From Lytechinus pictus (lineage: Eukaryota), in NCBI RefSeq assembly GCF_037042905.1, contig NC_087245.1, positions 30,258,001-30,322,000 of the forward strand: DNA of 64,000 nucleotides. The letters are read 5' to 3'. Below are positions 1,568 to 60,156 of this stretch, piece after piece. A model generated the notes under the pieces. The model saw only the letters and a program-made list of their open reading frames with translations. It did not search any database and had not been told where the DNA came from. The translations under genes and the position numbers were made by a program. The stretch's first letter is position 1, and each line of letters starts with the position of its first letter.

Positions 1568-2807
1568 CAGATATTTGGCGTACATCGACTTCCTTTAAGA
1601 GACTTATAGCCTATAGGGCCGTCTGCACCATCCCGAGTTTTCAAATTAGCGCGCTATTTCTGATCCGGCAAATTATCCCGATCTGAAAAATCTCGAGATA
1701 GTTGGCGGTGCAGACGCAATTATCGCGCTAGTTCGTAGGATTAATCTTGAGATTGCAATCCCAAGTCAACTCGGGTTTATTTGCAAAATAGCGCGCTATT
1801 TTACGAATTATCCCGCTAATTCGTCGGTGCAGACGCACTCGAGATTGGACTCGGGGTAATTTATTCATGACGTCAGTCCATAATGCAATTCGCGTTCCAC
1901 TTCCGCCTTGGTCAAAACATAAACACGTGCGAAAGTCAACTTTATACATGCGAATAGCGTTCATAAGCAACGATGGTGTCCCACCAGTGAATGGATTTTG
2001 GGAGAGACCAGACCGAAGGGCTAGGGGGAGGCGCTCATCGACGATGGTCATATTCAATAACAACACTGACAGCAGTGTTGTCTTATTCCTTCGCAAAATG
2101 TGAGCAAATAACATTTCTTTCCTCCTTCTCTCCCTCTCTCTCTCTCTCTGTCGTTGCCTCCTACTCCGCCATCATATTTAACGAAGAATACATCACTTCT
2201 TCACTCGCTGAGCTGAGAGGATTGTTGCATAACACCGGTTGAATTCGGCGAAAGTAATCAGGGTACTAATGGATAATTCGTTTTTCATTCCTGATTTTCG
2301 TAGAGCAAAAACGGAAGTCAACCTCATGGATTGGTCTTTGAAAACACAAAAACGAAATCACAACGAGAAAAACCCCGTTGTGATTTCATTTTTGGAGATC
2401 AAAAACAGAAGAATGAAATCAGAAATACTTTTGGTCCTCTCTGATACCTCATTCTATACCTGTGTTTGTTATATATTAAAAACAAAATCAGAACACGCTT
2501 TCTACCCCCTGATTCTGTTTGGAAAAACGCAGACAGCGAAAACGAAATCGGGTAGTTCGCTTTCCACTTCCTGCTCTCTGATTTCGTCTTTCGCACAGCC
2601 AACAGCCAACACACGTGCACGCAGTGCAGTGCATGCATGATACGACCACGTGCAACAAAAATTCACTTTAACATGGCTTTTTCCAGCGTTTTCGGACCTT
2701 CGCAGACAGTGGCGTAGCTAGGATTTTTTTCCCGGGGGGGGGGGGGACTGGGGGGTCCTTGCTTTTTCAGGGGGGGGGGCACCGGCCATTTTTTGCGGTG
2801 TGTGTGT

Positions 2808-3327
2808 AATAAAGTAATTTTTCAAGGGGCCCCCAGGGATATCCCGACGGCCTAGCCAGGGTAACCACGTATCCTAACTTGTAGAACTCGACTCGGGCAA
2901 CCAGATAAACACTAGCATGGCCCGGCGCATGCACATTTAGGGGGCTTAAATTAACAAAATTAAAGGGAATAAAGGGCTATTTATCGCATTTTAAAAATTA
3001 AAATAAAGTATTTTTCAAGGGGCCCCCAGGGATATCCCGACGGCCTAGCCAGGGTAACCACGTATCCTAACTTGTAGAACTCGACTCGGGCAACCAGGTA
3101 AACACTAGCTTGACCCGGTGCATGCACATTTAGGGGGCTCAAATTAACAAAAGTAAAGGGAATAAAGGGATATTTATCGCATTTTTAAAATTAATTTTTT
3201 TTTTCAAGGGGCCCCCAGGGATATCCCGACGGCCTAGCCAGGGTAACCACGTACCCTAACTTGGAGAACTCGACTCGGGCAACCAGATAAACACTAGCTT
3301 GACCCGGCGCATGCACATTTAGGGGGC
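2808..3327 (-). repeat. Left-arm array of the 194-bp repeat (about 2.7 copies, inverted)
   Basis: Reverse complement of the monomer at 7000-11712 (CAAGGGGCCCCCAGGGATATCCCGACGGCCTAGCCAGGGTAACCACG). Confidence 0.95.
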
Positions 3328-3845
3328 AACTGGTTAAAGCATCTCATGAGCAGATCTTATTCATATATTATACTCAGTCCTAAATCCTCCGCCAATAAAA
3401 TATTTCCGAAAGCTGAGTGACACCTGTATTTTTCTTTTATTTGCACAAAATATGTTCAATGGTTGCCCATTCTCTGTTTCTAGAATCAGTCTAATCATTA
3501 TACATATTCTTTTTTGTAATCAACTTACAAATTAAAAAAATGAGAATGGGTTGGGTCGAATGAATATCTTCAGCCTTCTGTTGTAGATCGTCATCTCTTG
3601 GAGAAAAGATGGGGGCGTATATCGATAGAAAACGTATTGTCAAAATATAAAATATGAGTATAAAGCTCCTCTAATCTTCGAATAATTCTCATGAGACATT
3701 TTCTTTTGCACGTGTAGCCTTCAATTCAATTAATTAGCAACTTAATATAATATGTGATGTATGTACCCGCGATTTGATTTAAAAAAAAAATGGCCATCTG
3801 CAATGTTAAAAAATATCACGAGGTTCTGGGGGCTCCGCCCCAGAC

Positions 3846-4521
3846 CAGTGGCGCCACCGAATGGGGAGGCCCCAGTGAGTTGCCCCCCCCCCCCCCCGAA
3901 ATTTGAAGAAACAAAATGTATAGTAAACGTTGTCATAATACTCCAAAAATGTTTTTTGTTCTTTAAATTTTAAAAATATTCTCATCCATTCACCGTTAGC
4001 ATTTAGGTCCCAACAATTTTGGTCACTAACATAAATCTTTCAGGCCATTATATAAAATTCAAAATGTAGCTCGCGATACGCGCTCGCAGTTATTAATGAT
4101 TATCTGTTCACATGGGGCTTAAAAATCAAATGTTATTAGAGTTTTCATTATTTGTTTTAGCGAGATACATATCCTGCGTATTCATAATTTCCATAGAGGA
4201 TTTATTTTCAGCGAATTAGATAGCCATTCATTTTATAATTAAAAAAAGGCTTAGAACGGCCAGGTATCATCCCGGATATAAAAAATTTTCAGCTCACGCT
4301 TCGCGCTCGCATTATTCATTTGGTGAGATATCATCTTCATGACCCAATTAATGCAAACAGCTGATTCTTAACAGTTCCCTTTTTAAATCAGTAGGGACTG
4401 CATTTGCAATAAAATTAGCTCGCGCTTCTCGCTCGATTTTTTTTTTAAATGTGTGCCATCCCCCCGGCCCCAAAATGTTTGTTTGCCTCCTCCTAGGTTA
4501 AAAACCCTAGTACCGTCATTG
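3846..4521. mobile_element. hAT-like non-autonomous element
   Basis: Ends CAGTGGCG...CGTCATTG. 8-bp TSD CCCCAGAC/CCCCGGAC (1 mismatch). An uninterrupted homologous site is visible at about 6732-6800. Internal CGCTTCGCGCTCGC motifs. Confidence 0.7.
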
Positions 4522-5084
4522 CCCCGGACCCGAACCGCATAGCACTGCCCCCCCCAAAAAAAAAAAAAAAAAAAAAAAAAGTTCTACAACCGAGAAAAAA
4601 AAATGATAAAAGGAAAGAAAGAAAAGGAAGAGGAAAGATATGTCATTTTCTGCATACCATGTCAAAATCAATCTCAAAATTGAAGGTGATTTTTATTCTC
4701 GCTCGCTTCGCTCGCTGGAGACTTATTATTAAGCAAATTTTTGCTGCGTGCGCCATGGTGTGCCCCCTCTATTTTGTTCTTATCTCGCATTGAGCTTCGC
4801 ACTAATGCTCGGGGCATAATCATAAAATATCCTGTTCATACAATGATATGACCCCTCCGTTCTCCCTTCTCTTTCTCTCCCTTTCCCCCTCCTTTTCTTT
4901 CCTATCTCTCCCTTTCGCTTCTCTCTCTTCTATTTTGTCTTCTCTCTTTCCTTGTTGTTTTTTACTCTACCCATCGGCAGCACTAAGGGATGGGGGGAAA
5001 AGTCAGGACCGTGGTTCCCCATGCTTGAAAAAGCCCGTATTCCTTTACTTTTGTTAATTTTAGCCCCCATAATGAGCATGCAAC

Positions 5085-6999
5085 CAGTTGCGTAACAGGC
5101 GGGGGGGGGGGCAAGCTGCCCCCCTTCCCCCTGGCGGAGTTCACCGTGAAAATGTTAAGAAAAAAAAACCGGGAAAAGGAAAAAATAAGGGGAGAAAGAA
5201 AGAAAGGGAAAGGAAAAGGAAAGGAAAAAAGATGAAAGGGGGAAAAGGGAGGGGAATAGAAAAGGGTAAGGGAAAATAAAACTAAGAGAAAAAAAAGGGA
5301 AAACGGAAAGAATTTGGAAAAAGGAAGGAAAGAAGAACATGTGAGGAAGAACAATTTTCCCAGATATACACATACATTAGCATGATTAGTAAGACAGGGA
5401 AATGAATTAAAGATGACAAAAAGGCAAACAAAAGCGGGAAATTAAGGTAGAATGGAATGAGGCAAAATCTAAATTGGAAAATAAAAAAAAGGGACAAGAT
5501 GGGCTGCTGAGGATTGAAGATAACGAGAGGGAAAAAAAGATGGATGGTATATAGCATAATTTCGTATGAAAGTCTATTATAAACTTGCTAAATATCCAAA
5601 GCTACCGGGGGCTCTGTCCAAGAGTCAAGACCCCGTCAGTGGAGGCTCTTAACCTGTAACCTTTAAAGGGCTCTATAACGGCCCCCTATATGGATCCTTC
5701 CGTTGAAGCACTGGCGTACGGGGGGGGGGGTTCCACAGCCAAGGGGAAATAAAAGAAAATGAAGGAGGCAGCGTAATGAGATGAATAAAATATTTTTAAA
5801 AATATATAAGACATGACATTTGCTATGATGTAAAAATCTATCACATAATTATAATTTTATTTCAAAATGCCATTTTTCTTCTGGCTCGCTTCGCTCGCTG
5901 GCGACTTTTTTTTAAAACAAATTTTCCCACATTTGCTATGGTGTGCCCCCTTAAAATATTTGGATGATTACGGTACACAACTACATTGATTGATTGATTG
6001 ATTGATCGACTAAATTTCCAAAGCGACTATCACATAATTAGAATTTAATTTCAAAATAATTTTAAAAGACAGGGAAATAAATTAAAGATGATAAAGGCAA
6101 ACAAAAGCGAGTGAAGGTTGAATGGAATGAGGCAAAATCTAAATTGGAAAATTAAAAAAAGGGACAAGATATTACTACCGGGCTGCTGAGGATTGAAGAT
6201 AACGAGCGGGAAAAAAAGATGGATGGTATATAGCATAATTTCGTATGAAAGTCTATTATAAACTTGTTAAATATCCAAAGCTACCGGGGGCTCTGTCCAA
6301 GAGTCAAGACCCCGTGCAGTGGAGGCTCTTAACTTGTAACTTTTAAAGGGCTCTATAACGGGCCCCTATATGGACCCTTCCTGCATTAACCTTTGCGTTG
6401 AAGCACTGGCGTACGGGGGGGGGATTGGTTCCACAGCCAAGGGGAAATAAAAGAATATGAAGGAGGCAGCGAAATGAGATGAATGAAATAAAAAAAATAT
6501 AAGACATGATATTTGCTGTGATGTAAAAGTCTATCACACAATTCAATTTTATTTCAAAAGGCCATTTTTCTTCTGGCTCGTTTCGCTCGCTGCCGACTTT
6601 TTACAAATTTTCCCACATTTGCTATGGTAGACCCCCTCAAAATATTTAGATGATTACGGTACACAACTGCAGCACTGAATTTATGTGTAGTGTGAAAGCT
6701 ATATAAATATACACGCAATTTGATTAAAATTAGTGGCCATCTGTAAGGTTTAAAATGGCTTTAATATCAAGAGGTTCCGGGGCTCTACCCCGGACCCCAC
6801 TCATTTTTGCCATTAAAATGTCAAAAATTTTGCTCGAACGCTCCGCTCGCTCGCATAAATATATATTTTTGTCCGATACTCCATAATATCGCCCCCTCAA
6901 AATTTTTGCCTTATGACTCCATTGCCTGCTTTATGATGTGACCGGGAAATTCTTGGTTCTTGCCCCCCCCCCCAGCCACCGACCCCTGTTACGCCACTG
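5085..6999. mobile_element. hAT-like non-autonomous element inserted in the innermost satellite monomer
   Basis: TIR CAGTTGCGTAACAGG / CCTGTTACGCCACTG. Exact 8-bp TSD CATGCAAC (5077-5084, 7000-7007). Internal ~0.6-kb direct duplication (about 5391-5982 vs 6066-6668). Confidence 0.9.
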
Positions 7000-9900
7000 C
7001 ATGCAACGGGTCAAGCAAATGTGTATCTGGTTGCCCGAGTCGAGTTCTACAAGTTAGGATACTAGGTTACCCTGGCTAGGCCGTTGGAATATCCCTGGGG
7101 GCCCCTTGAAAAAATACTTTATTTTAATTTTAAAAATGCGATAAATAGCCCTTTATTCCCTTTAATTTTGCTAACTTTAGCCCCCTAAATGTGCATGCGC
7201 CGGGTCAAATCAGTGTTTATCTGATCGCCCGAGTCAAGTTCTACAAGTTAGGATACGTGGTTACCCTGGCTAGGCCGTCAGGATATCACTGGGGGCCCCT
7301 TGAAAAAATACTTTATTTTAATTCTAAAAATGCGATAAATATCCCTTTATTCCCTTTAATTTTGTTAATTTGAGCCCCCTAAATGTGCATGCGCCGGGTC
7401 AAATCAGTGTTTATCTCTGGGGGCCCCTTGAAAAAATACTTTATTTTAATTTTAAAAATGCGATAAATAGCCCTTTATTCCCTTTAATTTTGTTAATTTA
7501 AGCCCCCTAAATGTGCATGCGCCGGGCCATGCTAGTGTTTATCTGGTTGCCCGAGTCGAGTTCTCCAAGTTAGGATACGTGGTTACCCTGGCTAGGCCGT
7601 CGGGATATCCCTGGTGGCCCCTTGAAAAATTACTTTATTTTAATTTAAAAAATGTGATAAATAGCCCTTTATTCCCTTTAATTTTGTTAATTTTAGCCCC
7701 CTAAATGTGCATGCGCCGGGTCAAGTCAGTTTTTATCTGATCGCCCGAGTCAAGTTCTACAAGTTAGGATACGTGGTTACCCTGGCTAGGCCGTCGGGAT
7801 ATCCCTGGGGGCCCCTTGAAAAAATACTTTATTTTAATTTAAAAAATGCGATAAATAGCCCTTTATTCCCTTTAATTTTGTTAATTTTAGCCCCCTAAAT
7901 GTGCATGCGCCGGGTCAAATAAGTTTTTATCGGATCGCCCGAGTCAAGTTCTACAAGTTAGGATACGTGGTTACCCTGGCTAGGCCGTCAGGATATCCCT
8001 GGGGGCCCCTTGAAAAAATACTTTATTTTAATTCTAAAAATGCGATAAATATCCCTTTATTCCCTTTAATTTTGTTAATTTGAGCCCTCTAAATGTGCAT
8101 ACGCCGGGTCAAATCAGTGTTTATCTGGTTGCCCGAGTCGAGTTCTCCAATTTAGGGTACGTGGTTACCCTGGCTAGGCCGTCGGGATATCCCTGGTGGC
8201 CCCTTGAAAAATTACTTTATTTTAATTTAAAAAATGCGATAAATAGCCCTTTATTCCCTTTAATTTTGTTAAATTTAGCCCTCTAAATGTGCATGCGCCG
8301 GGTCAAGTCAGTGTTTACCTGGTTGCCCGAGTCAAGTTCTACAAGTTAGGATACGTGGTTGCCCTGGCTAGGCCGTCGGGATATCCCTGGGGGCCCCTTG
8401 AAAATTTACTTTATTTTAATTAAAAAAATGCGATAAATAGCCCTTTATTCCCTTTAATTTTGTTAATTTTAGCCCCCTAAATGTGCATGCGCCGGGTCAA
8501 GTCAGTTTTTATCTGATCGCCCGAGTCAAGTTCTACAAGTTAGGATACGTGGTTACCCTGGCTAGGCCGTCGGGATATCCCTGGGGGCCCCTTGAAAAAA
8601 TACTTTATTTTAATTTAAAAAATGCGATAAATAGCCCTTTATTCCCTTTAATTTTGTTAATTTTAGCCCCCTAAATGTGCATGCGCCGGGTCAAATAAGT
8701 TTTTATCTGATCGCCCGAGTCAAGTTCTACAAGTTAGGATACGTGGTTACCCTGGCTAGGCCGTCAGGATATCCCTGGGGGCCCCTTGAAAAAATGCTTT
8801 ATTTTAATTTTAAAAATGCGATAAATAGCCCTTTATTCCCTTTAATTTTGTTAATTTTAGCCCCCTAAATGTGCATGCGCCGGATCAAATCAGTGTTTAT
8901 CTGGTTGCCCGAGTCGAGTTCTACAAGTTAGGGTACGTGGTTGCCCTGGCTAGGCCGTCGGGATATCCCTGGGGGCCCCTTGAAAATTTACTTTATTTTA
9001 ATTTAAAAAATGCGATAAATAGCCCTTTATTCCCTTTAATTTTGTTAATTTTAGCCCCCTAAATGTGCATGCGCCGGGTCAAGTCAGTTTTTATCTGATC
9101 GCCCGAGTCAAGTTCTACAAGTTAGGATACGTGGTTACCCTGGCTAGGCCGTCGGGATATCCCTGGGGGCCCCTTGAAAAAATACTTTATTTTAATTTAA
9201 AAAATGCGATAAATAGCCCTTTATTCCCTTTAATTTTGTTAATTTTAGCCCCCTAAATGTGCATGCGCCGGGTCAAATAAGTTTTTATCGGATCGCCCGA
9301 GTCAAGTTCTACAAGTTAGGATACGTGGTTACCCTGGCTAGGCCGTCAGGATATCCCTGGGGGCCCCTTGAAAAAATACTTTATTTTAATTTTAAAAATG
9401 CGATAAATAGCCCTTTATTCCCTTTAATTTTGTTAATTTTAGCCCCCTAAATGTGCATGCGCCGGATCAAATCAGTGTTTATCTGGTTGCCCGAGTCGAG
9501 TTCTACAAGTTAGGGTACGTGGTTGCCCTGGCTAGGCCGTCGGGATATCCCTGGGGGCCCCTTGAAAATTTACTTTATTTTAATTTAAAAAATGCGATAA
9601 ATAGCCCTTTATTCCCTTTAATTTTGTTAATTTTAGCCCCCTAAATGTGCATGCGCCGGATCAAGTCAGTGTTTACCTGGTTGCCCGAGTCAAGTTCTAC
9701 AAGTTAGGATACGTGGTTGCCCTGGCTAGGCCGTCGGGATATCCCTGGGGGCCCCTTGAAAATTTACTTTATTTTAATTAAAAAAATGCGATAAATAGCC
9801 CTTTATTCCCTTTAATTTTGTTAATTTTAGCCCCCTAAATGTGCATGCGCCGGGTCAAGTCAGTTTTTATCTGATCGCCCGAGTCAAGTTCTACAAGTTA

Positions 9901-11712
9901 GGATACGTGGTTACCCTGGCTAGGCCGTCGGGATATCCCTGGGGGCCCCTTGAAAAAATACTTTATTTTAATTTAAAAAATGCGATAAATAGCCCTTTAT
10001 TCCCTTTAATTTTGTTAATTTTAGCCCCCTAAATGTGCATGCGCCGGGTCAAATAAGTTTTTATCTGATCGCCCGAGTCAAGTTCTACAAGTTAGGATAC
10101 GTGGTTACCCTGGCTAGGCCGTCAGGATATCCCTGGGGGCCCCTTGAAAAAATACTTTATTTTAATTTTAAAAATGCGATAAATAGCCCTTTATTCCCTT
10201 TAATTTTGTTAATTTTAGCCCCCTAAATGTGCATGCGCCGGATCAAATCAGTGTTTATCTGGTTGCCCGAGTCGAGTTCTACAAGTTAGGGTACGTGGTT
10301 GCCCTGGCTAGGCCGTCGGGATATCCCTGGGGGCCCCTTGAAAATTTACTTTATTTTAATTTAAAAAATGCGATAAATAGCCCTTTATTCCCTTTAATTT
10401 TGTTAATTTTAGCCCCCTAAATGTGCATGCGCCGGGTCAAGTCAGTTTTTATCTGATCGCCCGAGTCAAGTTCTACAAGTTAGGATACGTGGTTACCCTG
10501 GCTAGGCCGTCGGGATATCCCTGGGGGCCCCTTGAAAAAATACTTTATTTTAATTTAAAAAATGCGATAAATAGCCCTTTATTCCCTTTAATTTTGTTAA
10601 TTTTAGCCCCCTAAATGTGCATGCGCCGGGTCAAATAAGTTTTTATCGGATCGCCCGAGTCAAGTTCTACAAGTTAGGATACGTGGTTACCCTGGCTAGG
10701 CCGTCAGGATATCCCTGGGGGCCCCTTGAAAAAATACTTTATTTTAATTTTAAAAATGCGATAAATAGCCCTTTATTCCCTTTAATTTTGTTAATTTTAG
10801 CCCCCTAAATGTGCATGCGCCGGATCAAATCAGTGTTTATCTGGTTGCCCGAGTCGAGTTCTACAAGTTAGGGTACGTAGTTGCCCTGGCTAGGCCGTCG
10901 GGATATCCCTAGGGGCCCCTTGAAAATTTACTTTATTTTAATTTAAAAAATGCGATAAATAGCCCTTTATTCCCTTTAATTTTGTTAATTTTAGCCCCCT
11001 AAATGTGCATGCGCCGGGTCAAGTCAGTTTTTATCTGATCGCCCGAGTCAAGTTCTACAAGTTAGGATACGTGGTTACCCTGGCTAGGCCGTCGGGATAT
11101 CCCTGGGGGCCCCTTGAAAAAATACTTTATTTTAATTAAAAAATGCGATAAATAGCCCTTTATTCCCTTTAATTTTGTTAATTTTAGCCCCCTAAATGTG
11201 CATGCGCCGGGTCAAATCAGTTTTTATCTGATCGCCCGAGTCAAGTTCTATAAGTTAGGATACGTGGTTACGCTGGCTAGGCCGTCAGGATATCCCTGGG
11301 GGCCCCTTGAAAAAATACTTTATTTTAATCATCTAAAAATGCGATAAATATCCCTTTATTCCCTTTAATTTTGTTAATTTGAGCCCCCTAAATGTGCATG
11401 CGCCGGGTCAAATCAGTGTTTATCTGGTTGCCCGAGTCGAGTTCTCCAAGTTAGGATACGTGGTTACCCTGGCTAGGCTATCGGGATACCCCTGGGGCCC
11501 CTTGAAAATTTACTTTATTTTAATTTTAAAAATGCGATAAATAGCCCTTTATTCCCTTTAATTTTGTTAATTTGAGCCCCCTTAATGTGCATGCGCCGGG
11601 TCAAGTCAGTGTTTATCTGGCTGCCCGTGTCGAGCTGTACAAGTTAGGGTACGTGGTTACCCTGGCTAGGCCGTCGGGATATCCCTGGGGCGCCCCTTGA
11701 AAAATTACTTTA
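7000..11712 (+). repeat. 194-bp tandem satellite array, about 24-25 monomers, in the right arm of the foldback
   Basis: 194-bp period (starts 7513, 7707, 7901 ... 8483, 8677, 8871 ...). One internally deleted monomer near 7385-7512. A diverged partial monomer lies at about 5030-5084, before the hAT insertion. Confidence 0.98.
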
Positions 11713-13236
11713 TTACACACACACCGCCAAAAATGGCCGGTGCCCCCCCCTGAAAAAGCAAGGACCCCCATTGCCCCCCCCGGGGGGGGGGGGGGAATCC
11801 TAGCTACGCCACTGTCTGTGAAGGTCCGAAAACGCTGGAAATTAAAAGCCATGTTAACGTGAATTTTTGTTGCACGTGGTCGTAACATAAAGCTATTACG
11901 TAATAGCTTCATGGTCGTATCATGCATGCACTGTACTGCGTGCCCGTGTGTATAACGTATTTCGATATGGCTGTTGGTTGTGCGAAAGACGAAATCAGAG
12001 AGCAGGAAGTGGAAAGCGAACTACCCGATTTCGTTTTCGCTGTCTGCGTTTTTCCAAACAGAATCAGGGGGTAGAAAGCGTGTTCTGATTTTGTTTTTAA
12101 TATATAACAAACACAGGTATAGAATGAGGTATCAGAGAGGACCAAAAGTATTTCTGATTTCATTCTTCTGTTTTTGATCTCCAAAAATGAAATCACAACG
12201 GGGTTTTTCTCGTTGTGATTTCGTTTTTGTGTTTTCAAAGACCAATCCATGAGGTTGACTTCCGTTTTTGCTCTACGAAAATCAGGAATGAAAAACGAAT
12301 TATCCATTAGTACCCTGATTGAAAGTGCTAGTGAAAGGAGTACATTGCTTGCATATATATCGCGGGAAGTTATTCAAAAGCGCGGGCCGTTGAAACTCCA
12401 AGATCCAAAAGTGCGCATGCTCGTAATATCGGGCTTGTTGCCTCGCTCGAGCAGGAATCGCTCTTCTTGCGATGGTGCAGACGGGGTTTCTTGAATCTCG
12501 AGATTAATCGCGAAGTGGGCCGATCGGGCTAGAATCTCGAGATTGAGCAAACTCGGGATGGTGCAGCACCGAATAATGTGGTCACTTTGGTAGATCGCAA
12601 GGAAAACAGTGGGGCAGGACGGGACATTGGGCTTCAGAAACAACATGACATTTAAATATTCAAGAAGCTTCAAATGGTATTTTGTTATTATATGTTACTT
12701 CAAGCGTGAAATGAGTACCTACTGGGTGAAATTAGTACCCTTCCTAGCAAATATCAAACTTAGAAAAATCAAATTCGTTACTTCTGTAGTGCGATTTATA
12801 AATTGTATTGACGAAATTGTCGGCTACATTTTTATTTTCAATCATTTTATTCATCACTAGTCAGTAGGCCAATAGCAAAAAAGGTCATGTTTATTAAGAA
12901 AGATACAAAAGGCTCAATCGCTTTGGAATTCAACACGAAATCTAATTTCTGAGCTATTTTTCAAATCTATATGTATCAAAACCCCTTGAAATGCTGGTTT
13001 TCTTATTTATCTTTCTGCCTACACACGATAACAAAATTTGTCGACCACTTGTCAAAATTTCAAGACTTCGTTACCTAAAAAATGCGCTATACCAGAAAAA
13101 ACATTGAGTCGTGAATCGGGTGCTTTAAAAGCGAAAATAACTCATTTCTTTCGGCGGCGGGGGAAGGGGAATGGAGGAGTGATAAGCTCCCAATTTAGTT
13201 TAGGATTACATAACAATTATAAGAGTACATACTCAC

Positions 13237-15239: not shown

Positions 15240-18200
15240 TTGGATTAACTCATAAACATGTATTTTCCCGGAAAATGGTATTCGGAGGAAAGAAGATTTC
15301 TATAAGACATGTCATACATGTCAGATTATTGGTAAGCTAGGCACAGCCTTCTATCAAGCCTGCTGCATTTAATTAACCTTTTACTAGGGTTCTTGTTAAT
15401 TGTGTTGGACCCTTACCCAGAACGAGGTCGGGTCACAGATTTCTCCTGACGATCATGGACTTGTCTACACGTTTTCAGGAGGCGATACCATTGATGAGTA
15501 TCATTGCAAAGACAGTGGTACAGGCGTTAGTGCAGTCTTTCACTCGGTATGGTCTGCCTAAGGAAATACAGTTTGACTAAGGGTCAAGTTTCATGTCAGG
15601 AATTTTTCAGCAAGTTATGAGGGAGTTGGGAATAAAGCAGACCAAAATCTCTGTTTATCACTCACAGTCCCCAGGAGTGTTAGAACGCTATCATCAGACC
15701 CTGAAGACCATGACTGGGGCTTCTTGTGAAGACTATCCCGATGTCTGGGATAAAGGAATCCCACTCCTACTGTTTGCAACTAGGGATTCCCCTAATGAGT
15801 CCACAGGTTTCAGTCCATTTGAATTGGTCTATGGTCATGAGGTTAGCGGCCCCTAAAGCTTATCAAAGAGATGTTTACGGTTGAGGATGATGATGTAAAC
15901 CTTATAGATAAGACTATGTGTCAAAGTTTAGAGAAAGGCTCTCAAAAGCTTGTGATGTAGCTAAGGAACAGTTGAAAGTGTTGCAGGGAAAAATGAAAGC
16001 TCAAGCTGACAAAAATGCAAGAAAGCGAAGTTTCAGGCCTGGAGACAAAGTGTTAGTGTTGTTGCCTTTGCAAGGTGAGCCCTTGAAAGCTAGGTTTAGT
16101 GGTCCATAGTCAACAAGAAATTGAATGATGTCAACTATGCGATCAGTACCCCTGATCGAAGAAAGTCTCAAAGAGTTTGTTATGTAAACATGTTGAAAGA
16201 ATACTTTGAGTGAGAGGCTAGTCAGTCAATAGGTACAACATAGGTCAAAGAAGACAAGAAACATGTAGATGTACATGAAAATGGATGCTATGGAAAGACA
16301 GATAATAAATTGTCTCATCAGGTGTATCTAAGAACGAACCATGTGGTGTAAAGTTGTCTAACTCTGAAATGTTAGGAAATATGGATTAGGCATTAAAACA
16401 CCTGCCTGAAGATCAGATAAATGATATATATGGCATGTTAAAAGACTATGAGAATGTGTGTAAAGACAAACCAGGGCGTACACCTTTAACTGTTGTTAAA
16501 TATAAGAAGAATTGTAAGAGCAATTACATTCATTTATTTAGTTATTTCCTCTTTAAGGATATTTTGGAATGATAAAGAATATTCCAGAACATGTTTGTAA
16601 AAGCTTTTGGCTATTTAAAAGCCAAAGAATTTTATTTTTGAATAGGGAAAAGCAAACAATAGATTCCTCAGGCAGTGGAAGAGAGACAATACAGACTGCT
16701 AAACAATAGGGATTGCTTTATAATAGTATTGTATTGGTAGTGGAAATACATAATAGGATTAGCTATGTGTTGATTTCACTGAGGTCATTTAAGAATGTTT
16801 TAGAAATGTAGAATTTTCCAGAAAGAAAGGAGAATGTTTTGTAAAGACAATACTATAATAATCTAGAATAGCTGAAATGTGCATATATAACTGGAGTTTT
16901 CTTCAAGGATATCATCACATCATATCAGATTACTTCATCAGATCAGATCACAACAGAACTCAGAGTTTCACGCCAGACTTTATGTCAGAGCGGAGTTTAT
17001 TTCCACCTGGAATATTTATATTCTGTGGAATTATTTGCCCGTCATCAGTGAACTGTTTGCAGTAATTTTGAGAGAGGAATTCTCAGTTCTCATCGAGATC
17101 ATCAACATCATCAACCTGATTAATGAACGCTTTTCAACTCTGAATTTGACCGTTAATCATCATCATCGTCTTCACGGACATTTCAACTCGTTACAGTGAC
17201 TCTCATTATTCATCGTGCTTCAACATCAGTTTCATCGTCGTCGCCATCTTTGTAAACAGAGTTTTCGCCAGCCAACTGGGATACTATCATTTGGAATAAC
17301 ACCAGAACTGACCTCAAGAGATTGTTGTAAGATATTTTGTTTTAATTTTGTTTAAGTACATGATTTGTAAATGTATAAATAATTTCCTGTAATAAAAAAA
17401 GGAAATTCAACTTCAATATATTTCATTGTTATTTGTTGCAGTATCGTAACACTGTACATGATGTAGACGTAGGTGATGTAAGACCTATCAAACAGAATCA
17501 TTATAGGCTCAATCCAAGCAAGAAATGGTGAATAAGGAAATACAGTAACTTAGACTGACTCGTTTCCAATTCCTAGGTTAGAAGATTGTATTGATAGGGT
17601 TGGAAATTCGGCCTATATCACAAAGTTAGACTTGCTTAAATGATATTGGCAAGTGCCACTGACTGACCGAGCCAAAGAGATATCAGCCTTTGTTACACCT
17701 GAATGTTTATTTTAATGCAAAGTGATACCTTTTGGAATGGAAAATGCGCCAGCAACCTTCCAAAGGTTAACAAATCAAGTGATTGCTGGGCTTGACAATT
17801 GTGTCGTATGCATTGAAGACACCCCTGTGTACAGTGATACTTGGAATGATCATCTGGATCATTTGAGAGCACTGTTTGACAGGCTGGATAAAGCCAAGCT
17901 AATAGTGAATCTGATGAAGAGTGAATTTGCCAAGGCAAAGATCACATATCTTGGTCATGTGGTTGGTCAAGGGCAAGTGCTATCAAGAGAAGCCAAGATA
18001 TATAATCTTAGACTTCCCAATCCCCACAACTAAGAAACAATTGCTCAGATTCTTAGGTATGAGTGGGTTTTACAGGAAATTTGTTCCAAATTACAGAACA
18101 GTGGTTAGTCCTCTGACAAACCTGCTGAAGGCACAAAATGAAGTATGTTTGGTCCCCCAGGTTCGGTCTGACGAATGTCAGAGATCATTTGAGAAATTAA

Positions 18201-18606
18201 AGGCCATTTTGGTAAATGAGCCTGTTTTGGCAGCTCCAAGTTTCACAAAGCCATTCAAAGTAGCTATTGATGCATGTGATGTTGGAGTATTGCTCCAAGA
18301 AGATGAAGAAAGCATAAAAAACAGTGTGCTACTTACCAAAGAAACTTAGTCGGTTTCAGAATAAGTACTCAACTATTGAAAAGGGAGCCCTGAGAATCGT
18401 ATTTGCCCTTCAGCAGTTTGAGGTCTATCTAACCAATGGAGAGATTACAGTCTATACAGACCATAATCCTCTTGTGTTTTTGGAGAAATTCAAAACAAAG
18501 AATCAACGACTCTATAGATGGAGCCTTATGCTCGAACCATTCCCATTGAAAATTGTACACATAAAAGGAAATAATAATGTAATTGCTGATTCTCTTTCAA
18601 GAGTAT
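15240..18606 (+). pseudogene. pol: Decayed Ty3/gypsy pol, Gmr1-type order integrase > RT > RNase H
   Basis: INT: CHTCQ, VGPLPRT, ERYHQTLK, FSPFELVYG, FRPGDKVLVLLP...FSGP (15300-16110). RT: FPIPRLEDCID, LDLLK*YWQVPL, PFGMENAPATFQRL, degenerate CIED in place of YxDD. RNase H: F.VAIDACD.G, YSTIEK, VYTDHNPL, ADSLSR. Many stops and frameshifts. Confidence 0.92.
16494..17451 (+). mobile_element. Solo LTR (958 bp) inserted into pol
   Basis: TGTTA...TAACA termini. 4-bp TSD CTGT (16490-16493, 17452-17455). TATATAA near 16884 and AATAAA near 17391. Removing it restores PGRTPLTVHDVDVGDVRPIKQ. Confidence 0.92.
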
Positions 18607-20019
18607 AAAAAGTAAAATTATTCATGCTTTTCACCAAGTGTGCCATTTGAAGAAAATGTCTTTGATGTTCATTGATATAAACATGTTTGTTTGTACTATA
18701 CCTTTGTACATGATAATGTAAATGATTTATCAAGATGACTTTGAAAAGTTAAAGGAAAAAAGTCATCTTAAAGAAACCATTACTACGGTGAAGCTTTCTT
18801 TTCCACGGTAGAATTGTAAGAGCAATTACATTTATTTAGTTAGTTATTTCCTCTTTAAGGATATTCATAGCATATAATGATTAAAAATATTCCACAATGT
18901 CTCAGTAAAGCTTTGTTAGGCATGCATATTTAATGAGGCTGTGTAATTTTTGTTTCTGAATAGAGATTGCTACACGATAGATTCCTAGTGGCAGTGAAAA
19001 AAAACAATAGGATTGGCTATATTGTTTACATTGTTAATTCACTGATAGTATCCCATAATTAGTAACCATCTGGAATAAAATTATTGGAAATGGTTTTTTG
19101 ACTGATTTGAGGAGGTATGGGTGTCAACATTTACCAAAAAAAAAAGTTAGGAGGAATACCGGTTGGGGAAAGTGCTTTTTTTCAAGGTCAAAGGTCAATG
19201 ACCTTTTTAAATATACTGTATCATGGTATCTCCCAGATAAAATATTACAGGTTGGTGATCATGATGTCAAAATGCACAGATTCTTACAAGAAGATCAAAT
19301 AAAATCAAACCAAGCACCTACAATGCTCATTCACCCATGAAATTCAAGGTCAAAGCCTTTCAAAGGTCAATGACCTTTTTTACATTATATACAATATACG
19401 GTATAACGGTATCTCTGAGATGAAAAGGCATAGGTTGGTGATCTTGGTGTCAAAATGCAGAAGTTCTTACAGGAAGATTAAATAAGATAAAATTAAGTAC
19501 CCAGAATGCACATTAAACAAAAACATTCAAGGTCAAAGCCTTTCAAAGGTCATTGACCTTTTTTACATTATATACCATATACGGTATAATGGTATCTCTG
19601 AGATGAAAAGGCGCAGGATGGTGATCTTGGTGTCAAAATGCACAGATTCTTACAAGAAGATCAAATAAAATAAAATCAAGTACCTACAATGCTCATTCAC
19701 CAATGAAATTCAAGGTCAAAGCCTTTCAAAGTTCAATTACCTTTTTTACATTATATACCATATACGGTATAATGACATCTCTGAGATGAAAAAGCGCAGG
19801 TTGGTGATCTTGGTGTCAAAATGCAGAGGCTCTTTTATACAGGAAGATCAAATAAATAAAATTAAGTACCCAGAAAACATATTAATCCATAAAGTTCAAG
19901 GTCAAAGGTCAATGACCTTTTTACATCAATATATCATATAATGTATTTTAAAGACGACTCGGCGATTTAAAATGATTTATTAGTCGGTGAACAATGCCAG
20001 GTCATGAAGGTATTTGTAA

Positions 20020-24185: not shown

Positions 24186-24769
24186 AGGAGAATGAAACCC
24201 TTGAAACTAGCTGAATCCATATCAAAGAGAAAAATCAAAGAAACATATTGTTGAAAGTTTGAGGAAGATTGAATGAATAATAAGAAAGTTATGAGCATTT
24301 GAATATTGAGATCACTAGTGCCATGTAGATCCTCCCATCGGCATTGCGACCAAGATCTGTGATATCACACACGTACAACTCCCTCATTACTTTAGTACTT
24401 ATTTCACTTATATTCTCACTTTTATAGAGTCTATCACAAGGTTAGGTGTTTTTCTTTATGAGATGACAAGTACAGAGGTTTCACAACATTATATCATTGA
24501 TGAATCGTTTGTCATATGATTAGAATGAGCAAAACGAGATGTTTTGGGGTATATTTTCAGTGTCCGAATGGGAGAGTTGTACGTGTGTGACATCACAGAT
24601 CTTGGTCGCATTGCCAATGGGAGGATCTCCATAGCATTAGTGATCTCGACATTCAAATGCTCATAACTCTTTTATTGCTAGTCCTATTTTACTCAAAGTT
24701 TTGTTGATCTTATTCTTTGATTTTTCTGCTTTCACAAAAGCTAACTTGCTCCAAGAGTTTCATTCTCCT
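24186..24769. mobile_element. Palindromic TTAA-specific MITE (Kolobok-like)
   Basis: TTAA|AGGAGAATGAAAC...GTTTCATTCTCCT|TTAA. The arms pair over about 200 bp. Confidence 0.88.
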
Positions 24770-30100: not shown

Positions 30101-32294
30101 TTGAGGTGAGTGGCCTATCGCTGCGGCGGCTGGAGAGAAAAAGACATGACAACCTTGATTTAGATATTATGATGCATTAAATGCTGCTACTTAAGATAAA
30201 ACTTATTTCAAATTATATACTTGATTTTTTTTTTTCATTGCTTTTGGCATTGCATCGAAGTATATAAAGAAGTGCTATTCGGTTATCAACTTTTTTTTTA
30301 AACTTAATTTCCACTGATATTTTGGAAATAGTTCATAGACCTCTGACCACTAAATACATTCTCCATGACCTTCATTATTTCAGACTGAAATTATGAAATT
30401 ATGAATTATTTCATCTGATCGTAGATTTCAAGGGTGAAAGTTTATTCTTTATACTGATTTTGGTGTTGTTTAATCTTCTTGTACAAATCTTTGCATTTTG
30501 GCACCAAGATCACCAACCTGCTATGTTTTATCTCAGTGATAACATTATCATTATCTTATGTAGAATGACATTGACCTTTGTCCTTGAATTTTAAGGGTGA
30601 ATGTGCATTCTCGATGCTTAATTTTATTTAATCTTCCTGTAAGAATCTGTGCATTTTGACACCAAGAAAACCAACCTGCGCCGTTTTTTCTTAGAGATAC
30701 CATTATATTATATGGTATACAATGTATAAAAGGTCATAGACCTTTGGCCTTAAATTTTATGGGTGAATGTGCATTCTAGGTACTTTATTTTATTTTATTT
30801 GATCTTCTGGTCAGAATCTGTGAATTTTGACACCATGATCACCAACCTGTGCCTTTTCATCTCAGAGATACCATTATACAGTATAGTATATATAATGTGA
30901 AAAGGTCATTGACCTTTTGAAAGCTTTGACCTTGAATTTTATTGGTGAAAGTCCATTCTAGGTACTTAAATTTATTCTATTTTATCTTCTTGTAAGAATC
31001 TGTACATTTTGACATCATGATCACCAGCCTGCGCCTTTCCATCTCAGAGATACCATTTTACAGTATGGAATATAATGTAAAAAAAAAAGGTCATTGACCT
31101 TTGAAAGGCTTTGACCTTATATTTTATCGGTGAATGTGCATTCTAGGTACTTAATTTTATTTCATTTGATATTCTGGTAAGAATTTGGGCATTTTGACAC
31201 AATTATCACCAACCTGCGTCTTTCAATCTCAGATAAACCATTATACAGTATATATGAAAAGGTCATTGACATTTGACCTTGAAAAAAAAAATACTTTCCC
31301 CAACCCGTATTCCTCCTAACTTTTTTTTTGGTAAATGTTGACACCCATACCTACTCAAATCAGTTGAAAAACCATTTCCAATAATTTTATTCCAGATTGG
31401 CTATTTTGGGGTCCAATTTAGGGATACTATAAGGTCACTCAAGAGTCTTCTAAAATTAGACTGCTCTAGAAATTGGCAGAATGTTCTTTTTGTAGACATT
31501 ACTAGAAGCTTCCAGAATAGTTTCTTCAAGGACACTATCATATATCAGATCAGAACTTAGAGTTTCACACCAGACTTTATTTTTTTCTAACTGGAATATA
31601 AGATTTATCTTCTGTGGAATTATTTGCACACCATCAATGAATTATTTGCAGTTACTTTGAGAGAGGAATTTTCAGTTCTCATCGAGATCATCAACCTGTT
31701 TTAATGAACGCTTTTCAACCTATGGATTGCTGAAATTGACTGTTAATCATCATCAACATAGTCTTCACAGACATTTCAACTCGTTACAGTAACTCTTGTT
31801 ATTCATTGTGCTTCAACATCAATTTCATCATCGCCATCATTGTGAACTTTAATTTAAGGAATCTTCGCCAACCAACTTGGATTTTATCCGGATTTAATTC
31901 AGGACTACCTTAACTTTGGATTGCACATGTAGTCGCGACCGGAGTACATTATTGACCAGTTTAGTTTGCAGAAATACAATAAATCATTCCTAAAATCGTC
32001 GACGGATTATCAGACATCTCATTTACTAATTACTATGCTACAATGATATTCAGCCACGGTGGGTCCAAGAATTTCATAAATACGGAGACACCAGACGCCT
32101 AATTTTTTTCGGAAATGGGATTCTCTTTGAAGAAAAATAAGTTCATTATCACGATAATAAAAAAAATCTTCACAATTAAGGAAAGAACGGGGCCTGGTGC
32201 TTTTTTAGCGGGTCCGCCCCCACCCCGAATTCGGCACTGATGTTCAGCCTCCCTGATTAAGAATTCGTTGAATATGTTGTAAATCCATACGTAC

Positions 32295-32971: not shown

Positions 32972-34989
32972 CAGTGCGTCCCAAAAAAACTATACACTTT
33001 TGAAATGGCTGCCAAATAAAAAATGTAGCACTTTGGGGGAAAATACTTATAGATATGGAAAGCCAATAAAGTCAACTTTCAAATGACACCAACAAGTTGG
33101 AAAACTATTCATGCGTGAGCGAGCACTGCCCTTTGAAACAAAGGGTATGAAAATTAGGGTGGGCCGGAATTAGCCTTCCAATTTCTTTCAGGTTTTTTTT
33201 GTTTGGTACTTGCAAAGTTGAGGGTTATTTGGTGAATTAAAGATCAGTTGTGATCAGTTTGCTGTTTGTGAAAATTTAATGCGTTATTAAATTGAAATTT
33301 AATGCATGAGTGATCATGAATTGCAATTTTTAGTGCAGCATTTTGTCTTTATCATGTGGATCTCAACAATGTGTTCATGAGAGTCAAGAGAAGAGGGTGT
33401 AATATGACTTGGGTAGGTGAAGTACGTTGATGGGATAAAGGTCCACAGAACATTTAACAACCCCTCTCTCCATCTCAACCCCCCCCCCTTCACTCCTCCT
33501 GAGAGACTAAGCTCGGCTAGGCTGGGAAGGAATTAGCATTACAGTTTTTTTTTTTTTTTTGTGGTTAGTCCTTTGGATCTTGCAAGGCTAAGGGTGTTAG
33601 GCTAAATAAATGAGTGAGATAAGTTTTGGTGTCTTAGGCAAATTTCACGAGTTACTAAATTGAAATTTAATGCATGAGTTAACAGGAATTATAATTTAAG
33701 TGTAGCATATTCATCTTGTGGACCTCAGAAGTGTGTTCGTGAGAGTCATAGTAATTTGATGGTACATGTTACAAGCAAGAGTGCGAGATATGCTAAGATT
33801 TGGTTAAAATGGCATTCCTCTACTTTTTGTCCTTTTACAAATTAAAAGTCATATGTACCCTTCCCTCTCCGCCTCCATTTCCCAGTCCCCCCCCCCTCTC
33901 TCTCTATCTATCTCACTTCATGGAGTGTAGCCTATTCAAAACTAAACTGCCAAGTGACCGGTGGCTGATGGTCAGTTTTTTTATTGAATCATTACCAAGA
34001 AATTTAACGATTATGATGATTAATGAAATAATTTATTGAAAAAACTGAATGTTTGATTGATCACATTGCACATTGAATGAGTTAATTTACTAATAAATTG
34101 TTGATGAAATGATTGATAGGAAAAAGTTGATGCCCCAATTCAGAATCTATCATTAAATCAACATTCTGCTCTGGACTTCACGCGTACATGACAATATCCA
34201 TCAGTTCTCAACAGGAGGGGAGGGCGGGAAAGAGGAGGGGCGGGGGCGGGGGCTCAATGTTCTGTTGACCCTTATTTCATCAACCTGCTTCTCCCTCTTG
34301 AGTCCTATCTCACCCCCTATTCTCCCGACTCCCATGAACACGTTGCCGAGATCCACATGATAAAGTTGAAATGCTGCCCCAAAAGAGATCCAAATGATAA
34401 AGTTGAAATGCTGCCCAAAAAGTGTAATTTGTGTTCATTCATGCATTAAAGTTCAATTTAATGATTTATAAAATTTGCTTCAACATCCAAAACTGGTCAC
34501 GGTTGATCATTTATTTATCACTACGCCCTTTACTTTGCAAGTTCAAAAAGATTTGCCTCTCAAAAACTGACAAAAGAGATCCAAAAGAGATCCAAATGAT
34601 AAAGTTGAAATGCTGCCCAAAAAGTGTAATTTGTGTTCATTCATGCATTAAAGTTCAATTTAATGATTTATAAAATGTGCTTCAACATCCAAAACTGGTC
34701 ACGGTTGATCATTTATTCATCACTACGCCCTTTACTTTGCAAGTTCAAAAGCATTTGCCTCTCAAAAACTGACATAAATTGGAATGCTAATTCCAGCCCA
34801 CCCTAATTTTCATACCCTTTGTTTCATTGGACAATAATTGCTCAAGCATGAATAGATTTCCAACTTTTTTGTGTCATTTGAAAGTTGACTTTATTGGCTT
34901 TCCATATATGTAAGTCTTTTTCCCTAAAGTGCTACATTTTTTATTTGGCAGCCATTTCAAAAGTGTATAGTTTTTATTGGGACGCACTG
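32972..34989. mobile_element. Tc1/mariner-type non-autonomous element with long TIRs
   Basis: TA|CAGTGCGTCCCA...TGGGACGCACTG|TA. Arms are complementary for several hundred bp. ~200-bp duplication in the right arm (34381 vs 34583). No transposase ORF. Confidence 0.9.
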
Positions 34990-38042: not shown

Positions 38043-40575
38043 CACAGCAAAAACTGTGGTGTTAACCGGTGTACATATAGGACCACACCAGTTGTTTTAC
38101 ACCGGTGTTAAATTGGTGGTGCTCGTTTTACACCCATAGGTGTTATTACAACACCTTTGGTTGTTACATTTACACTCTTTGGTGTTATGTTCAATCTCTA
38201 GGGTGTAATTTTAACACCTCAGGGTGTAGTCCTCTATTAACATCAACTGGTGTCAGTTTTAACACCACAGTTTTTACAGTGTGTAAGACACAGCTTGTGC
38301 TCATTTTTCCCAAATTCAAAAGGTCTGTTCCAAGCTGTCTTGCGTCTCTTCTGCTTTGTGTATCTCATATGCACACACTATTATTAGCTGCACTGTGCAT
38401 TCACTGTTACCTTGTATAAACTGTATGTACATGTAGGTCATGTTGGTTTCATGAAGATTTTGTGTGTTGTGGTGCACAGATTCGCTTTATACGCATATAG
38501 TCCTTAAAACCAACCCCCAATTTTTTTCAAACTTTGGTTTACATCTCCAAAGTTTTAAAAATAGATATGATACTTTGAAACTTTTGGGATTGTATTTTCA
38601 ACTGTAAGCCTAAAGTTTAGCCCATATTTAAGAATCAAAATGAGAACCTTTCAAATCATAACAAAGTGAAATTATCACTTTAAGGTTTGAAATTGATCAA
38701 TTGGATGGATTTGAAATAGGATTTAAATTGATTAATTCATTTAATAATATTTCTAAGTGTCCATAAATGGTCCCTTGTAAATGTTCTTTTTTATTTTTAT
38801 TAAGTAGTAAATGATAAAACTAAAAATTATGAACCTGATCGTGACAAAACTCAAATTATTAAACACTTAAGTATTAAACCTATTATCCTGAGATTATCAA
38901 AGATTACCCCATCCCCCTAAACACACAAAATCTCCCACCTTTTTACACAAATTCCTATTATTGATTTTCACAGGCTGACACAACTTACTGGTTCGGTTTT
39001 CTGAAAAAGAAATTTATAAAAACTATTTCCTTGAAAAAAAAAAATCATTTTTTTTTGTCTACCTATTATTATTATTATTATTATAAATATCATCATCACT
39101 ATTATCATTATCATCATCGTTATTATCATAATCATTATTATACAATGTTATTTTTACTGTTTAGGTCCACAATAAAAAAATGCATCATACTCAGCAAAAA
39201 GTGTGGTGTTAACCGGTGTACATAGAGGACCACAACAGTTATTTTACACCGGTGTTAAATTGGTGGTGTTAGTTTTACACGTTTAGGTGTTATTACAACA
39301 TCATGGTTGTTACATTTACACTCTTTGGTGTTATGTTCAATCTCTAGGGTGTAATTTTAACACCTCAGGGTGTAGTCCTCTATTAACATCAACTGGTGTC
39401 AGTTTTAACACCACAGTTTTTACAGTGTGTAAGACACAGCTTGTGCTCATTTTTTCCAAATTCAAAAGGTCTGTTCCAAGCTGTCTTGCGTCTCTTCTGC
39501 TTTGTGTATATCATATGCACACACTATTATTAGCTGCACTGTGCATTCACTGTTACCTTGCATAAACTGTATGTACATGTAGGTCATGTTGGTTTCATGA
39601 AGATTTTGTGTGTTGTGGTGCACAGATTCGCTTTATACGCATATAGTCCTTAAAACCAACCCCCAATTATTTTCAAACTTTGGTTTACATCTCCAAAGTT
39701 TTAAAAATAGATATGATACTTTGAAACTTTTGGGATTGTATTTTCAACTGTAAGCCTAAAGTTAAGCCCATATTTAAGAATCAAAATGAGAACCTTTCAA
39801 ATCATAACAAAGTGAAATTATCACTTTAAGGTTTGAAATTGATCAATTGGATGGATTTGAAATAGGATTTAAATTGATTAATTCATTTAATAATATTTCT
39901 AAGTGTCCATAAATGGTCCCTTGTAAATGTTCTTTTTTATTTTTATTAAGTAGTAAATGATAAAACAAAAAATTATGAACCTGATCGTGACAAAACTCAA
40001 ATTAATAAACACTTAAGTATTAAACCTATTATCCTGAGATTAACAAAGATTACCCCATCCCCCTAAACACACACAATCTCCCACCTTTTTACACAAATTC
40101 CTATTATTGATTTTCACAGGCTGACACAACTTACTGGTTCGGTTTTCTGAAAAAGAAATTTATAAAAACTATTTCCTTGAAAAAAAAAAATCATTTTTTT
40201 TTGGTCTACTTATTATTATTATTATTATTATAAATATCATCATCACTATTATCATTATCATCATCGTTATTATCATAATCATTATTATACAATGTTATTT
40301 TTACTGTTTAGGTCCACAATAAAAAAAATGCATCATACTCAGCAAAAAGTGTGGTGTTAACCGGTGTACATAGAGGACCACAACAGTTATTTTACACCGG
40401 TGTTAAATTGGTGGTGTTAGTTTTACACCTTTAGGTGTTATTACAACATCATGGTTGTTACATTTACACTCTTTGGTGTTATGTTCAATCTCTAGGGTGC
40501 TATTTTAACACCTCAGGGTGTGGTCCTCTATTAACACCAATTTGTGTCAGTTTTAACACCACAGTTTTTACAGTG
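38043..40575 (+). repeat. Recent ~1.15-kb tandem duplication bounded by three copies of a ~240-bp MITE
   Basis: TAAGACACAGCTTGTGCTC at about 38284 and 39430. MITE CAGCAAAAAnTGTGGTGTTAA...CACCACAGTTTTTACAGTG at about 38043, 39190 and 40338. Confidence 0.92.
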
Positions 40576-40689
40576 TATAAATAAACATTGATGCAAGGTC
40601 TTTGAACACAATAATGAACATAAACAGAAAATAGAATGTGCAACAGGAGGATGCTGACAAAAAAAATAAAAACAGGTACGAGAATTTGC

Positions 40690-41867: not shown

Positions 41868-41942
<75 letters not shown>
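41868..41942. repeat. (TA)n microsatellite
   Basis: Pure TA run. Others at about 45488-45517 and 60092-60152. Confidence 0.98.
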
Positions 41943-41945
<3 letters not shown>

Positions 41946-42631
41946 GCAATGGGGATACACACATGAAAGTCGACCCTGAGTCAACCGACTTGAAGTCATT
42001 GACTCAGGGTCATGTTCAGAACTTTTTTTTAGCTCGGAGAGTGTACTGCGGGCGGCAACGGAGTGCTATATCACGATTGCAGTTTCTTTCAGTTGATTTT
42101 TCTTACATGTTGTCTGTTTTCTTGATAACTGTTCAAATGGTTTGAGTTATTGCTTGGTTATTCATCTCTATTTGCGTTTCCTGTATTAATTATAATGCCT
42201 TAATAACAAAATAATGAGTCTAGATTTGTCATTGTAATGTTCCACGCAGAGCGATTAATGTGGGGTTGTGGTCGCTTATTAGAACAGCCACTATACGTAC
42301 GTGCATAGACCTACTGCGTACTCTGCGGAGCGAGAGCTGATTTTGAGTAATTGTGTAGTCTTATTCCAGGAATGAATAAATAAGTAAAATAATAATTATG
42401 ACAATGCTCTAAAATTGTTTTGTTTTGTTTTTGTTGTTCAAACTGTGGTGTGATATTATGGTTCGACGCTTATATTCCAAGATTCGTCAATTTTGACATC
42501 CAATAAAGTGTACTGACAGTGGCGTAGGCCTACTTCTGGTAGGGTTTGTGTCTTTGTGGGGCGCGCTGTTGTTCCCCCATCCCCCCCCCCGCCCATCCCC
42601 CATATTTTCTTCAAAAGGTTTGTGTGTGTAT

Positions 42632-42665
<34 letters not shown>

Positions 42666-53553: not shown

Positions 53554-53931
53554 AGGTATTGTTTAACTTTGTGAGCGACCGATTTAAAAAATTCTTAAAC
53601 CAAGATGAAACATGTGTACAAGTGCATGTATTAGAACTAATAAACCCTGAAAACAACCATTATTGAGAAAAAAAAGCTAAAACTACAAGGCAAACCCCGA
53701 TTTTGTAAATAGGCGTCTACTAGACGCCTAAATAGTACACATAAGTGTATGGGATGAAATTAAGGTGGTGTTTCCGGTCACTTTATATTTCAATTTTTGA
53801 AGCACTAAATAATTATTTTCGAACGCAATTTTTTCTGGGCTTCATTTTTGTAACATATCACAGACACTGGTGACATGTGTGACCTTCTAGCTCAGATTTT
53901 TTAAAAGTCAAACCAATGTTAAACAATCACT
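53554..53931. mobile_element. TTAA-specific MITE (Kolobok-like)
   Basis: TTAA|AGGTATTGTTTAAC...GTTAAACAATCACT|TTAA. A related fragment lies at about 37878-38040. Confidence 0.8.

Positions 53932-60087: not shown

Positions 60088-60156
<69 letters not shown>

Follow-up and report, generated by a model that had tools for sequence, protein, structure and literature searches.

A young foldback-shaped transposon in Lytechinus pictus with a 6-bp target site duplication and a probably captured 194-bp repeat

A stretch of 64,000 nucleotides from Lytechinus pictus (NCBI RefSeq assembly GCF_037042905.1, contig NC_087245.1, positions 30,258,001 to 30,322,000 of the forward strand), here called the window, harbours an element of about 10 kilobases (kb) at 2256..12320. 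It is bounded by terminal inverted repeats (TIRs) beginning AATCAGGG and flanked by a 6-base-pair (bp) target site duplication (TSD), GAAAGT. Both arms contain arrays of a 194-bp repeat, in opposite orientation. The element is a young, recently inserted, non-coding foldback-shaped transposon which entered its site as a unit, and its 194-bp repeat probably existed before and was captured. All coordinates refer to the window.

The insertion and its termini

Logan contigs from four of 22 public runs (X1, X5, X12 and X15) were compared with positions 1620-3000, and the contig evidence given here is that among the matches listed. In two of the four runs (X1 and X15) an empty site with one GAAAGT is present. 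A 592-bp contig of X1 tracks 1794-2255 and continues directly with the sequence beginning at 12327, and the same loose end (2255 to 12327) is found in X15. The single GAAAGT at the empty site shows that the element is a true insertion and that an older repeat received it in one piece; a 6-bp TSD match has a chance probability of about 4e-4. Since this target is a multi-copy repeat, whose ends are presumably Harbinger-like, the empty sites are probably paralogous and do not by themselves show polymorphism. In addition, a unitig of X1 begins exactly at 2256 with no differences over 111 bp and is thus an independent marker of the family terminus. The termini are AA..TT in the window as well as in this unitig. 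The terminal AATCAGG recurs inverted at TIR positions 36-42 (window 2256-2297), and the terminal hairpin is not stronger than those of shuffled sequences (z −1.54). An alternative start at CAGGG or ATCAGG with an 8-bp TSD was rejected, as it conflicts with the empty site, which reads C and G at the two positions that this longer duplication would include. The terminal pattern has no match in viral contigs and none in prokaryote genomes; eight metagenome matches, none extending beyond the 18-mer, were treated as chance.

A transposase-like open reading frame (ORF) was not found in the element, in which the longest ATG frame, located in the TIR, has 132 amino acids and no Pfam, homologue or atlas match; the element must therefore move in trans. 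The TIR contains a stop-free frame of 123-132 amino acids which was rejected as a gene: it has no Pfam match, none of nine homologue candidates scored, and the best atlas value was 0.78. Furthermore, 16 variant sites among those listed are split 6/8/2 over codon positions 1, 2 and 3, and frameshifting gaps occur among the contig variants. With TIRs, a TSD of which the empty site has one copy, and no transposase ORF, the element has the features of a non-autonomous cut-and-paste transposon, and its long inverted arms, internal repeats and variable non-coding middle are those of the foldback structural class. A preliminary description of this DNA had proposed a young foldback transposon with these inverted termini and a clean GAAAGT duplication. 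Its coordinates proved exact, and its view of the element is borne out by the TSD, the empty site and the unitig.

Structure of the arms

Over their outer 353 bp the two arms align without gaps and with a single substitution; further inward they still match in inverted orientation, at about 89% identity, as far as about 3327/11187. The arms first differ by an indel directly after TIR position 353; the 98 bp that follow contain four substitutions and indels of 16, 35 and 4 bp. At the substitution rate of this spacer, one substitution or fewer in 353 bp has a probability of about 7e-6, which indicates homogenisation of the outer arm or its separation from the inner arm. The break at position 353 is seen in three ways, namely in the arms of the window, in a contig of X1 which departs at 2608 with 348 further bases matching nothing in the compared stretch, and in a contig of X15 departing at the same position. 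The depth in X5 drops past the TIR end from 183 to 7 and 1. These breaks and the drop in depth argue that the family TIR consists of the outer 353 bp only, so that the near-identity of the arms described earlier stands for this part and ends there. Within the TIR eight to nine copies of a 13-bp AAAACGAAATCAG-like motif occur in both orientations (family size 9, the maximum in shuffles being 5; 0 of 200 shuffles reach 9). These motifs are putative transposase binding sites. The terminal AATCAG is the 3′ part of the motif, and it may be guessed that the element end is a derived one.

The near-complete identity of the outer arms and its abrupt end agree with panhandle-type repair. The element could accordingly be a gutted Polinton/Maverick whose arms were extended and homogenised by strand-displacement replication and which is mobilised by a Polinton integrase, a reading that we consider quite unlikely. 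A terminal microsatellite, as known from Polintons, is missing. ORFs for pPolB, integrase, ATPase and capsid were not found in the element, though non-autonomous derivatives would also lack them; no other remnant of a Polinton gene was seen in it, and viral contigs gave no match. The 6-bp TSD and the long, near-perfect TIRs are Polinton features (PMC3014272; PMC6839031; PMC10045372). However, Polintons have AG ends and viral-type genes (PMC3014272; PMC6839031), both absent here, where the ends are AA..TT.

Behind the TIR follow a low-copy spacer and the end of a different mini-element (Table 1). This CAGTGGCG-type of mini-element we take to be hAT-like. Elsewhere in the window three pairs of CAGTGGCG-type ends carry 8-bp TSDs (3 of the 153 pairs tested; 0.09 expected), two of them nested inside the element. 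At the 2707/11814 pair the flanks are reverse complements with no direct duplication, and a search for a matching TSD partner inside the element gave none. A contig of X1 has a different flank before 2707 and a different continuation after 2775. Copying from arm to arm would explain both the mirrored flanks and the lack of an 8-bp TSD at this mini-element end. It is improbable that the layers reflect simple nesting instead, that is, a satellite-bearing hAT-like foldback (2707-11814) within the centre of a short palindromic AATCAGG element whose arms were never copied into each other. An inner unit with its own inverted CAGTGGCG ends and an outer unit with its own TIR are indeed present. However, such elements left a direct 8-bp TSD in the three other cases, and none is found here; simple nesting needs either a blunt insertion at the exact centre or a TSD erased by conversion, and with the latter it merges into capture followed by arm copying. 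As a control for the inner ends, a CAGTGGCGTA-ended element at 50139-51247 has a perfect 8-bp TSD, ACATCATT.

Table 1 Features of the element and its flanks
Feature	Position	Strand	Remarks
Left portion of older multi-copy host repeat	1617..2249	.	boundary approximate
Left TSD GAAAGT	2250..2255	.	occurs once in empty-site contigs
Left core TIR, 353 bp	2256..2608	+	starts AATCAGGG; contig boundaries at 2256 and about 2608
Left spacer	2609..2706	+	low-copy, part of extended arm; depth 0 (X1), 10-27 (X15), 1-7 (X5)
CAGTGGCG-type mini-element end, left arm	2707..2815	+	without direct 8-bp TSD
Left 194-bp array	2807..3327	+	2.7 monomers (TRF, 193 bp × 2.7)
Interior, degenerate repeats	3328..5027	.	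non-coding
Nested CAGTGGCG-type mini-element	3846..4521	.	8-bp TSD CCCCRGAC, 7/8 match
Orphan piece of innermost right monomer	5028..5084	-	severed by insertion 5085-6999
Nested CAGTKGCGTAAC element, 1.9 kb	5085..6999	.	perfect 8-bp TSD CATGCAAC
Right 194-bp array	7000..11714	-	24.3 monomers (TRF)
CAGTGGCG-type end, right arm	11701..11814	-	mirrors 2707-2821
Right spacer	11815..11967	-	longer than left by 55 bp (16 + 35 + 4 bp)
Right core TIR, 353 bp	11968..12320	-	
Right TSD GAAAGT	12321..12326	.	
Right portion of host repeat	12327..12572	.	adjoins 2255 in empty-site contigs; boundary approximate

Growth of the 194-bp arrays

The presence of the same 194-bp unit in both arms, with few monomers left and many right, agrees with the preliminary count. 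The right array truly begins near 5028, its first monomer being split by the nested CAGTKGCGTAAC element, which itself contains an 88% direct duplication (5391-5985 / 6066-6671). As this element, with its perfect 8-bp TSD, interrupts the innermost monomer, the array is old at its inner end. Read from the outside in, the monomer classes of the right array are ??BACBACBADCBACBADEBAFE??, and the differences between monomers are minimal at lags 3 and 7. A 7-mer duplication (8208-9565 / 9566-10923; 1358 bp) shows seven differences (0.5%). Nine identical monomer pairs exist among R4-R21, and the classes differ at 5-17 of 194 positions. The left monomers differ from the outermost right ones at 13-14 of 125 positions, L1 and R22 at 2 of 125, and the classes A, B and C are missing from the left array. 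The class mismatch between the arms together with the identical pairs on the right shows that the right array expanded after the arms had separated, recently and locally. It grew in place, in trimers and then by the 7-mer duplication, as the earlier proposal of an asymmetric expansion had it; perhaps imported monomers were included.

That the inversion or the array length is an assembly artefact is very improbable. Higher-order repeats that are nearly identical easily become collapsed or over-expanded in assembly, and the array length given here is that of the assembled sequence. However, the TSD and the empty site, arms which differ by indels and monomer types unlike those of a mirror chimera, and 7-mer copies differing at seven sites all speak for a real structure.

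Origin of the 194-bp repeat

By BLAST the monomer has no match at E<5 to the TIR, the spacer or the mini-element end, and the 13-bp TIR motif has no match in 4710 bp of the right array. The folding of the monomer is not significant (z 0.0). Its patterns have no match in viral contigs, and one bacterial match, restricted to a 21-mer, was regarded as chance.

The summed contig depth, which does not equal copy number, at 2560-2606, 2654-2700, 2701-2747 and 2842-2888 was 7.8, 0, 20 and 399 in X1, 57, 27, 557 and 481 in X15, and 183, 1.1, 31960 and 853657 in X5. The monomer thus exceeds the inner TIR about 50-fold in X1, about 8-fold in X15 and more than 1000-fold in X5. X1 and X5 combine a deep monomer with a spacer depth of zero and close to zero, respectively. 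X5 contains tandem joints of monomer length, and in X15 and X5 monomer-like pieces lie within longer contigs with other flanks. In organism C, the source of X5, the 194-mer reaches a summed depth of 250,000-850,000 over 2818-2990, which equals or exceeds that of the host repeat's end, and it is possibly a major satellite there. The lack of similarity between monomer and TIR, and a monomer far deeper than TIR and spacer in three runs, argue that the 194-mer was captured and not born here; it probably pre-existed. The preliminary idea of a TIR module seeding a satellite, after the manner of Tetris, FB or TU, is therefore not upheld: the TIR ends at position 353, shares neither similarity nor motif with the monomer, and is separated from it by the end of another mini-element family, and the monomer is abundant where the spacer is absent or nearly so.

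This idea corresponds to Tetris of Drosophila virilis, an ORF-less foldback in which a tandem unit of about 200 bp lies in both arms behind a flanking domain and arrays expand in place (PMC4079207). The 194-mer would then be a native inner module of the arm, and the AATCAGG family both source and vehicle of the satellite; we hold this for rather unlikely, with some weight nevertheless. This reading agrees with the occurrence of monomers in both arms and their local expansion in one of them, and with the contig of X15 in which TIR position 353 is joined to monomer sequence; long arrays within such elements could produce a high satellite depth, as in Tetris (PMC4079207). However, the Tetris unit shares 37 bp with the outer domain, its TSDs are 8-10 bp, and free arrays were not seen by fibre-fluorescence in situ hybridisation (PMC4079207). 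Here the TSD is 6 bp, the unit is not derived from the outer TIR domain and shares no sequence with it, the end of a different family intervenes, and the unit, seen deep where the spacer is missing and within other flanks, seemingly exists independently.

Several observations weigh against capture. The runs may stem from other species, and X12 covered just 7 of 30 bins and is uninformative. The contig of X15 mentioned above (depth 26) links TIR position 353 (2608) to the monomer at 2884 through a joint which spans 33 other letters (shorter side 33) with a short hairpin, so that other family members may also abut monomer-related DNA. In X15 the spacer has about half the depth of the inner TIR and hence is not unique to the window copy there. 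Of the captured mini-element just one end was found, and the divergence of the arms within the mini-element end lies mostly in one G/C tract. There is a real chance that the AATCAGG family regularly carries the 194-mer.

Comparison with known elements

The sea-urchin TU and the Drosophila FB elements also have foldback arms of modular build, which contain tandem repeats, and a variable middle. Their TSDs are 8-9 bp long, and their outer domain holds short tandem repeats. In contrast, the outer domain here lacks a tandem structure, the repeated unit being a 194-mer located further inward. The 2RT copies of Galileo in Drosophila mojavensis are likewise non-autonomous, with TIRs lengthened by recruitment of internal sequence, tandem repeat numbers unequal between the two TIRs and arms of about 1.2 kb (PMC3573991). 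Galileo differs in belonging to the P superfamily, in its 7-bp TSD and in native tandem repeats with transposase sites (PMC3573991), whereas the present element has a 6-bp TSD and recruited the end of another element and a repeat without the TIR motif.

A 6-bp TSD and TIRs of more than 100 bp are shared with IS3EU/GingerRoot, elements of 4-13 kb which carry captured DNA and occur in aquatic animals (PMC10045372; PMC6839031; PMC12730594). Their published ends are TA..TA (TAYGG..CCRTA in fungi) and rarely TG..CA (PMC10045372; PMC6839031; PMC12730594), neither of which matches AA..TT, and the agreement in TSD length is based on one insertion. The TG..CA termini of Ginger2/TDD are also not found here; the TSD of Ginger2 is published as 6 bp or as 4-5 bp. 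With hAT6, for which a 6-bp TSD is published, the comparison covers the TSD length, which is equal to that observed here. With its AA..TT ends the element does not fit IS3EU/GingerRoot, Polinton or Ginger and is filed in none of them; our best guess is that it behaves as a non-autonomous IS3EU-type element with long TIRs. The earlier remark that the ends are unlike those of known foldback families and of Polinton is supported as to Polinton, and they are unlike the ends of IS3EU as well. A literature search gave no description of the AATCAGG family or of the 194-bp satellite, with supplements, Repbase, Dfam and the original TU papers outside its scope.

Proposed mechanism

We consider it probable, with reservations, that the element is a non-autonomous cut-and-paste transposon with a 353-bp TIR, moved in trans by a transposase making 6-bp TSDs, and that its present form resulted from capture of a satellite, copying between the arms and local growth. 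The element was inserted as a unit into the older repeat, and its conserved TIR ends at position 353; the repeated 13-bp motif of this TIR may be bound by the transposase. A CAGTGGCG-type mini-element carrying 194-bp monomers would have landed just inside one TIR; the carrier implied by this capture should have CAGTGGCGTAGCTAGG ends, the 194-mer and its own 8-bp TSD. Break repair templated on that arm may then have copied the spacer, the mini-element end and some monomers across, a TIR extension for which Galileo is a precedent (PMC3573991). Further mini-elements, visible in the interior, were inserted there. The right array grew through its trimer and 7-mer duplications, presumably by unequal exchange or slippage, some monomers probably being brought in from other arrays, and later conversion may have kept the outer 353 bp identical.

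As mobilising enzyme an IS3EU/GingerRoot-type transposase with atypical ends is tentatively placed first, at somewhat less than an even chance. An enzyme of an unrecognised group is a lesser possibility, a Polinton integrase is unlikely, and an hAT6 enzyme more unlikely still. It counts against the IS3EU-type guess that it leans on TSD length and that the terminal signature is missing.

Other features of the window

The only Rfam match, a transfer RNA (tRNA)-like sequence at 787-859 (+; 36.1 bits), lies outside the element; it was not called by ARAGORN and is probably the head of a tRNA-derived short interspersed element. Broken pol fragments of a long terminal repeat retrotransposon are located at 15581-18608 (+), with an RT_RNaseH_2 match at 17918-18346. 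At 53919-59690 (−) several broken reverse transcriptase fragments of the long interspersed element type, apparently from two nested elements, include RVT_1 at 55331-56050. Two 880-bp units at 19068-19944 and 30542-31397 are 82% identical in opposite orientation, each containing a 183-185 bp repeat in about 3.8 copies, and no convincing TSD lies at their outer ends; they represent either an older foldback or a repeat-bearing element present twice. The element at 32972-34989, presumably Tc1/mariner-like, has CAGTGCGTCCCA ends and a TA duplication; its inverted arms are long, and a 202-bp repeat lies inside it. A short element at 24186-24769 with AGGAGAATGAAAC ends and a TTAA duplication we assume to be Kolobok-like. 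Recent direct duplications also occur: at 38045-40580 a tandem unit of 1147 bp is repeated at 97.7%, and the block of 1.7 kb at 41869-43537 recurs in two pieces (60080-60570 and 62695-63870) at 94-95%.

Implications

The layers of this element can be ordered into family TIR, captured element end, captured repeat and local higher-order expansion. A Tetris-like layout can thus arise by capture and arm copying and not only by the birth of a satellite from a TIR. The process has published precedents in Galileo and Tetris; the unusual part is the end sequence, which fits none of the compared families. The AA..TT ends together with the confirmed 6-bp duplication provide a handle for tracing the transposase responsible. 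A further-reaching and at present doubtful possibility is that AATCAGG elements form an undescribed 6-bp-TSD group, active in several related genomes, in which repair routinely copies the interior into both arms and which serves as vehicle for the 194-bp repeat abundant in organism C. If so, captured repeats would be turned by these elements into mobile, expanding satellite arrays.

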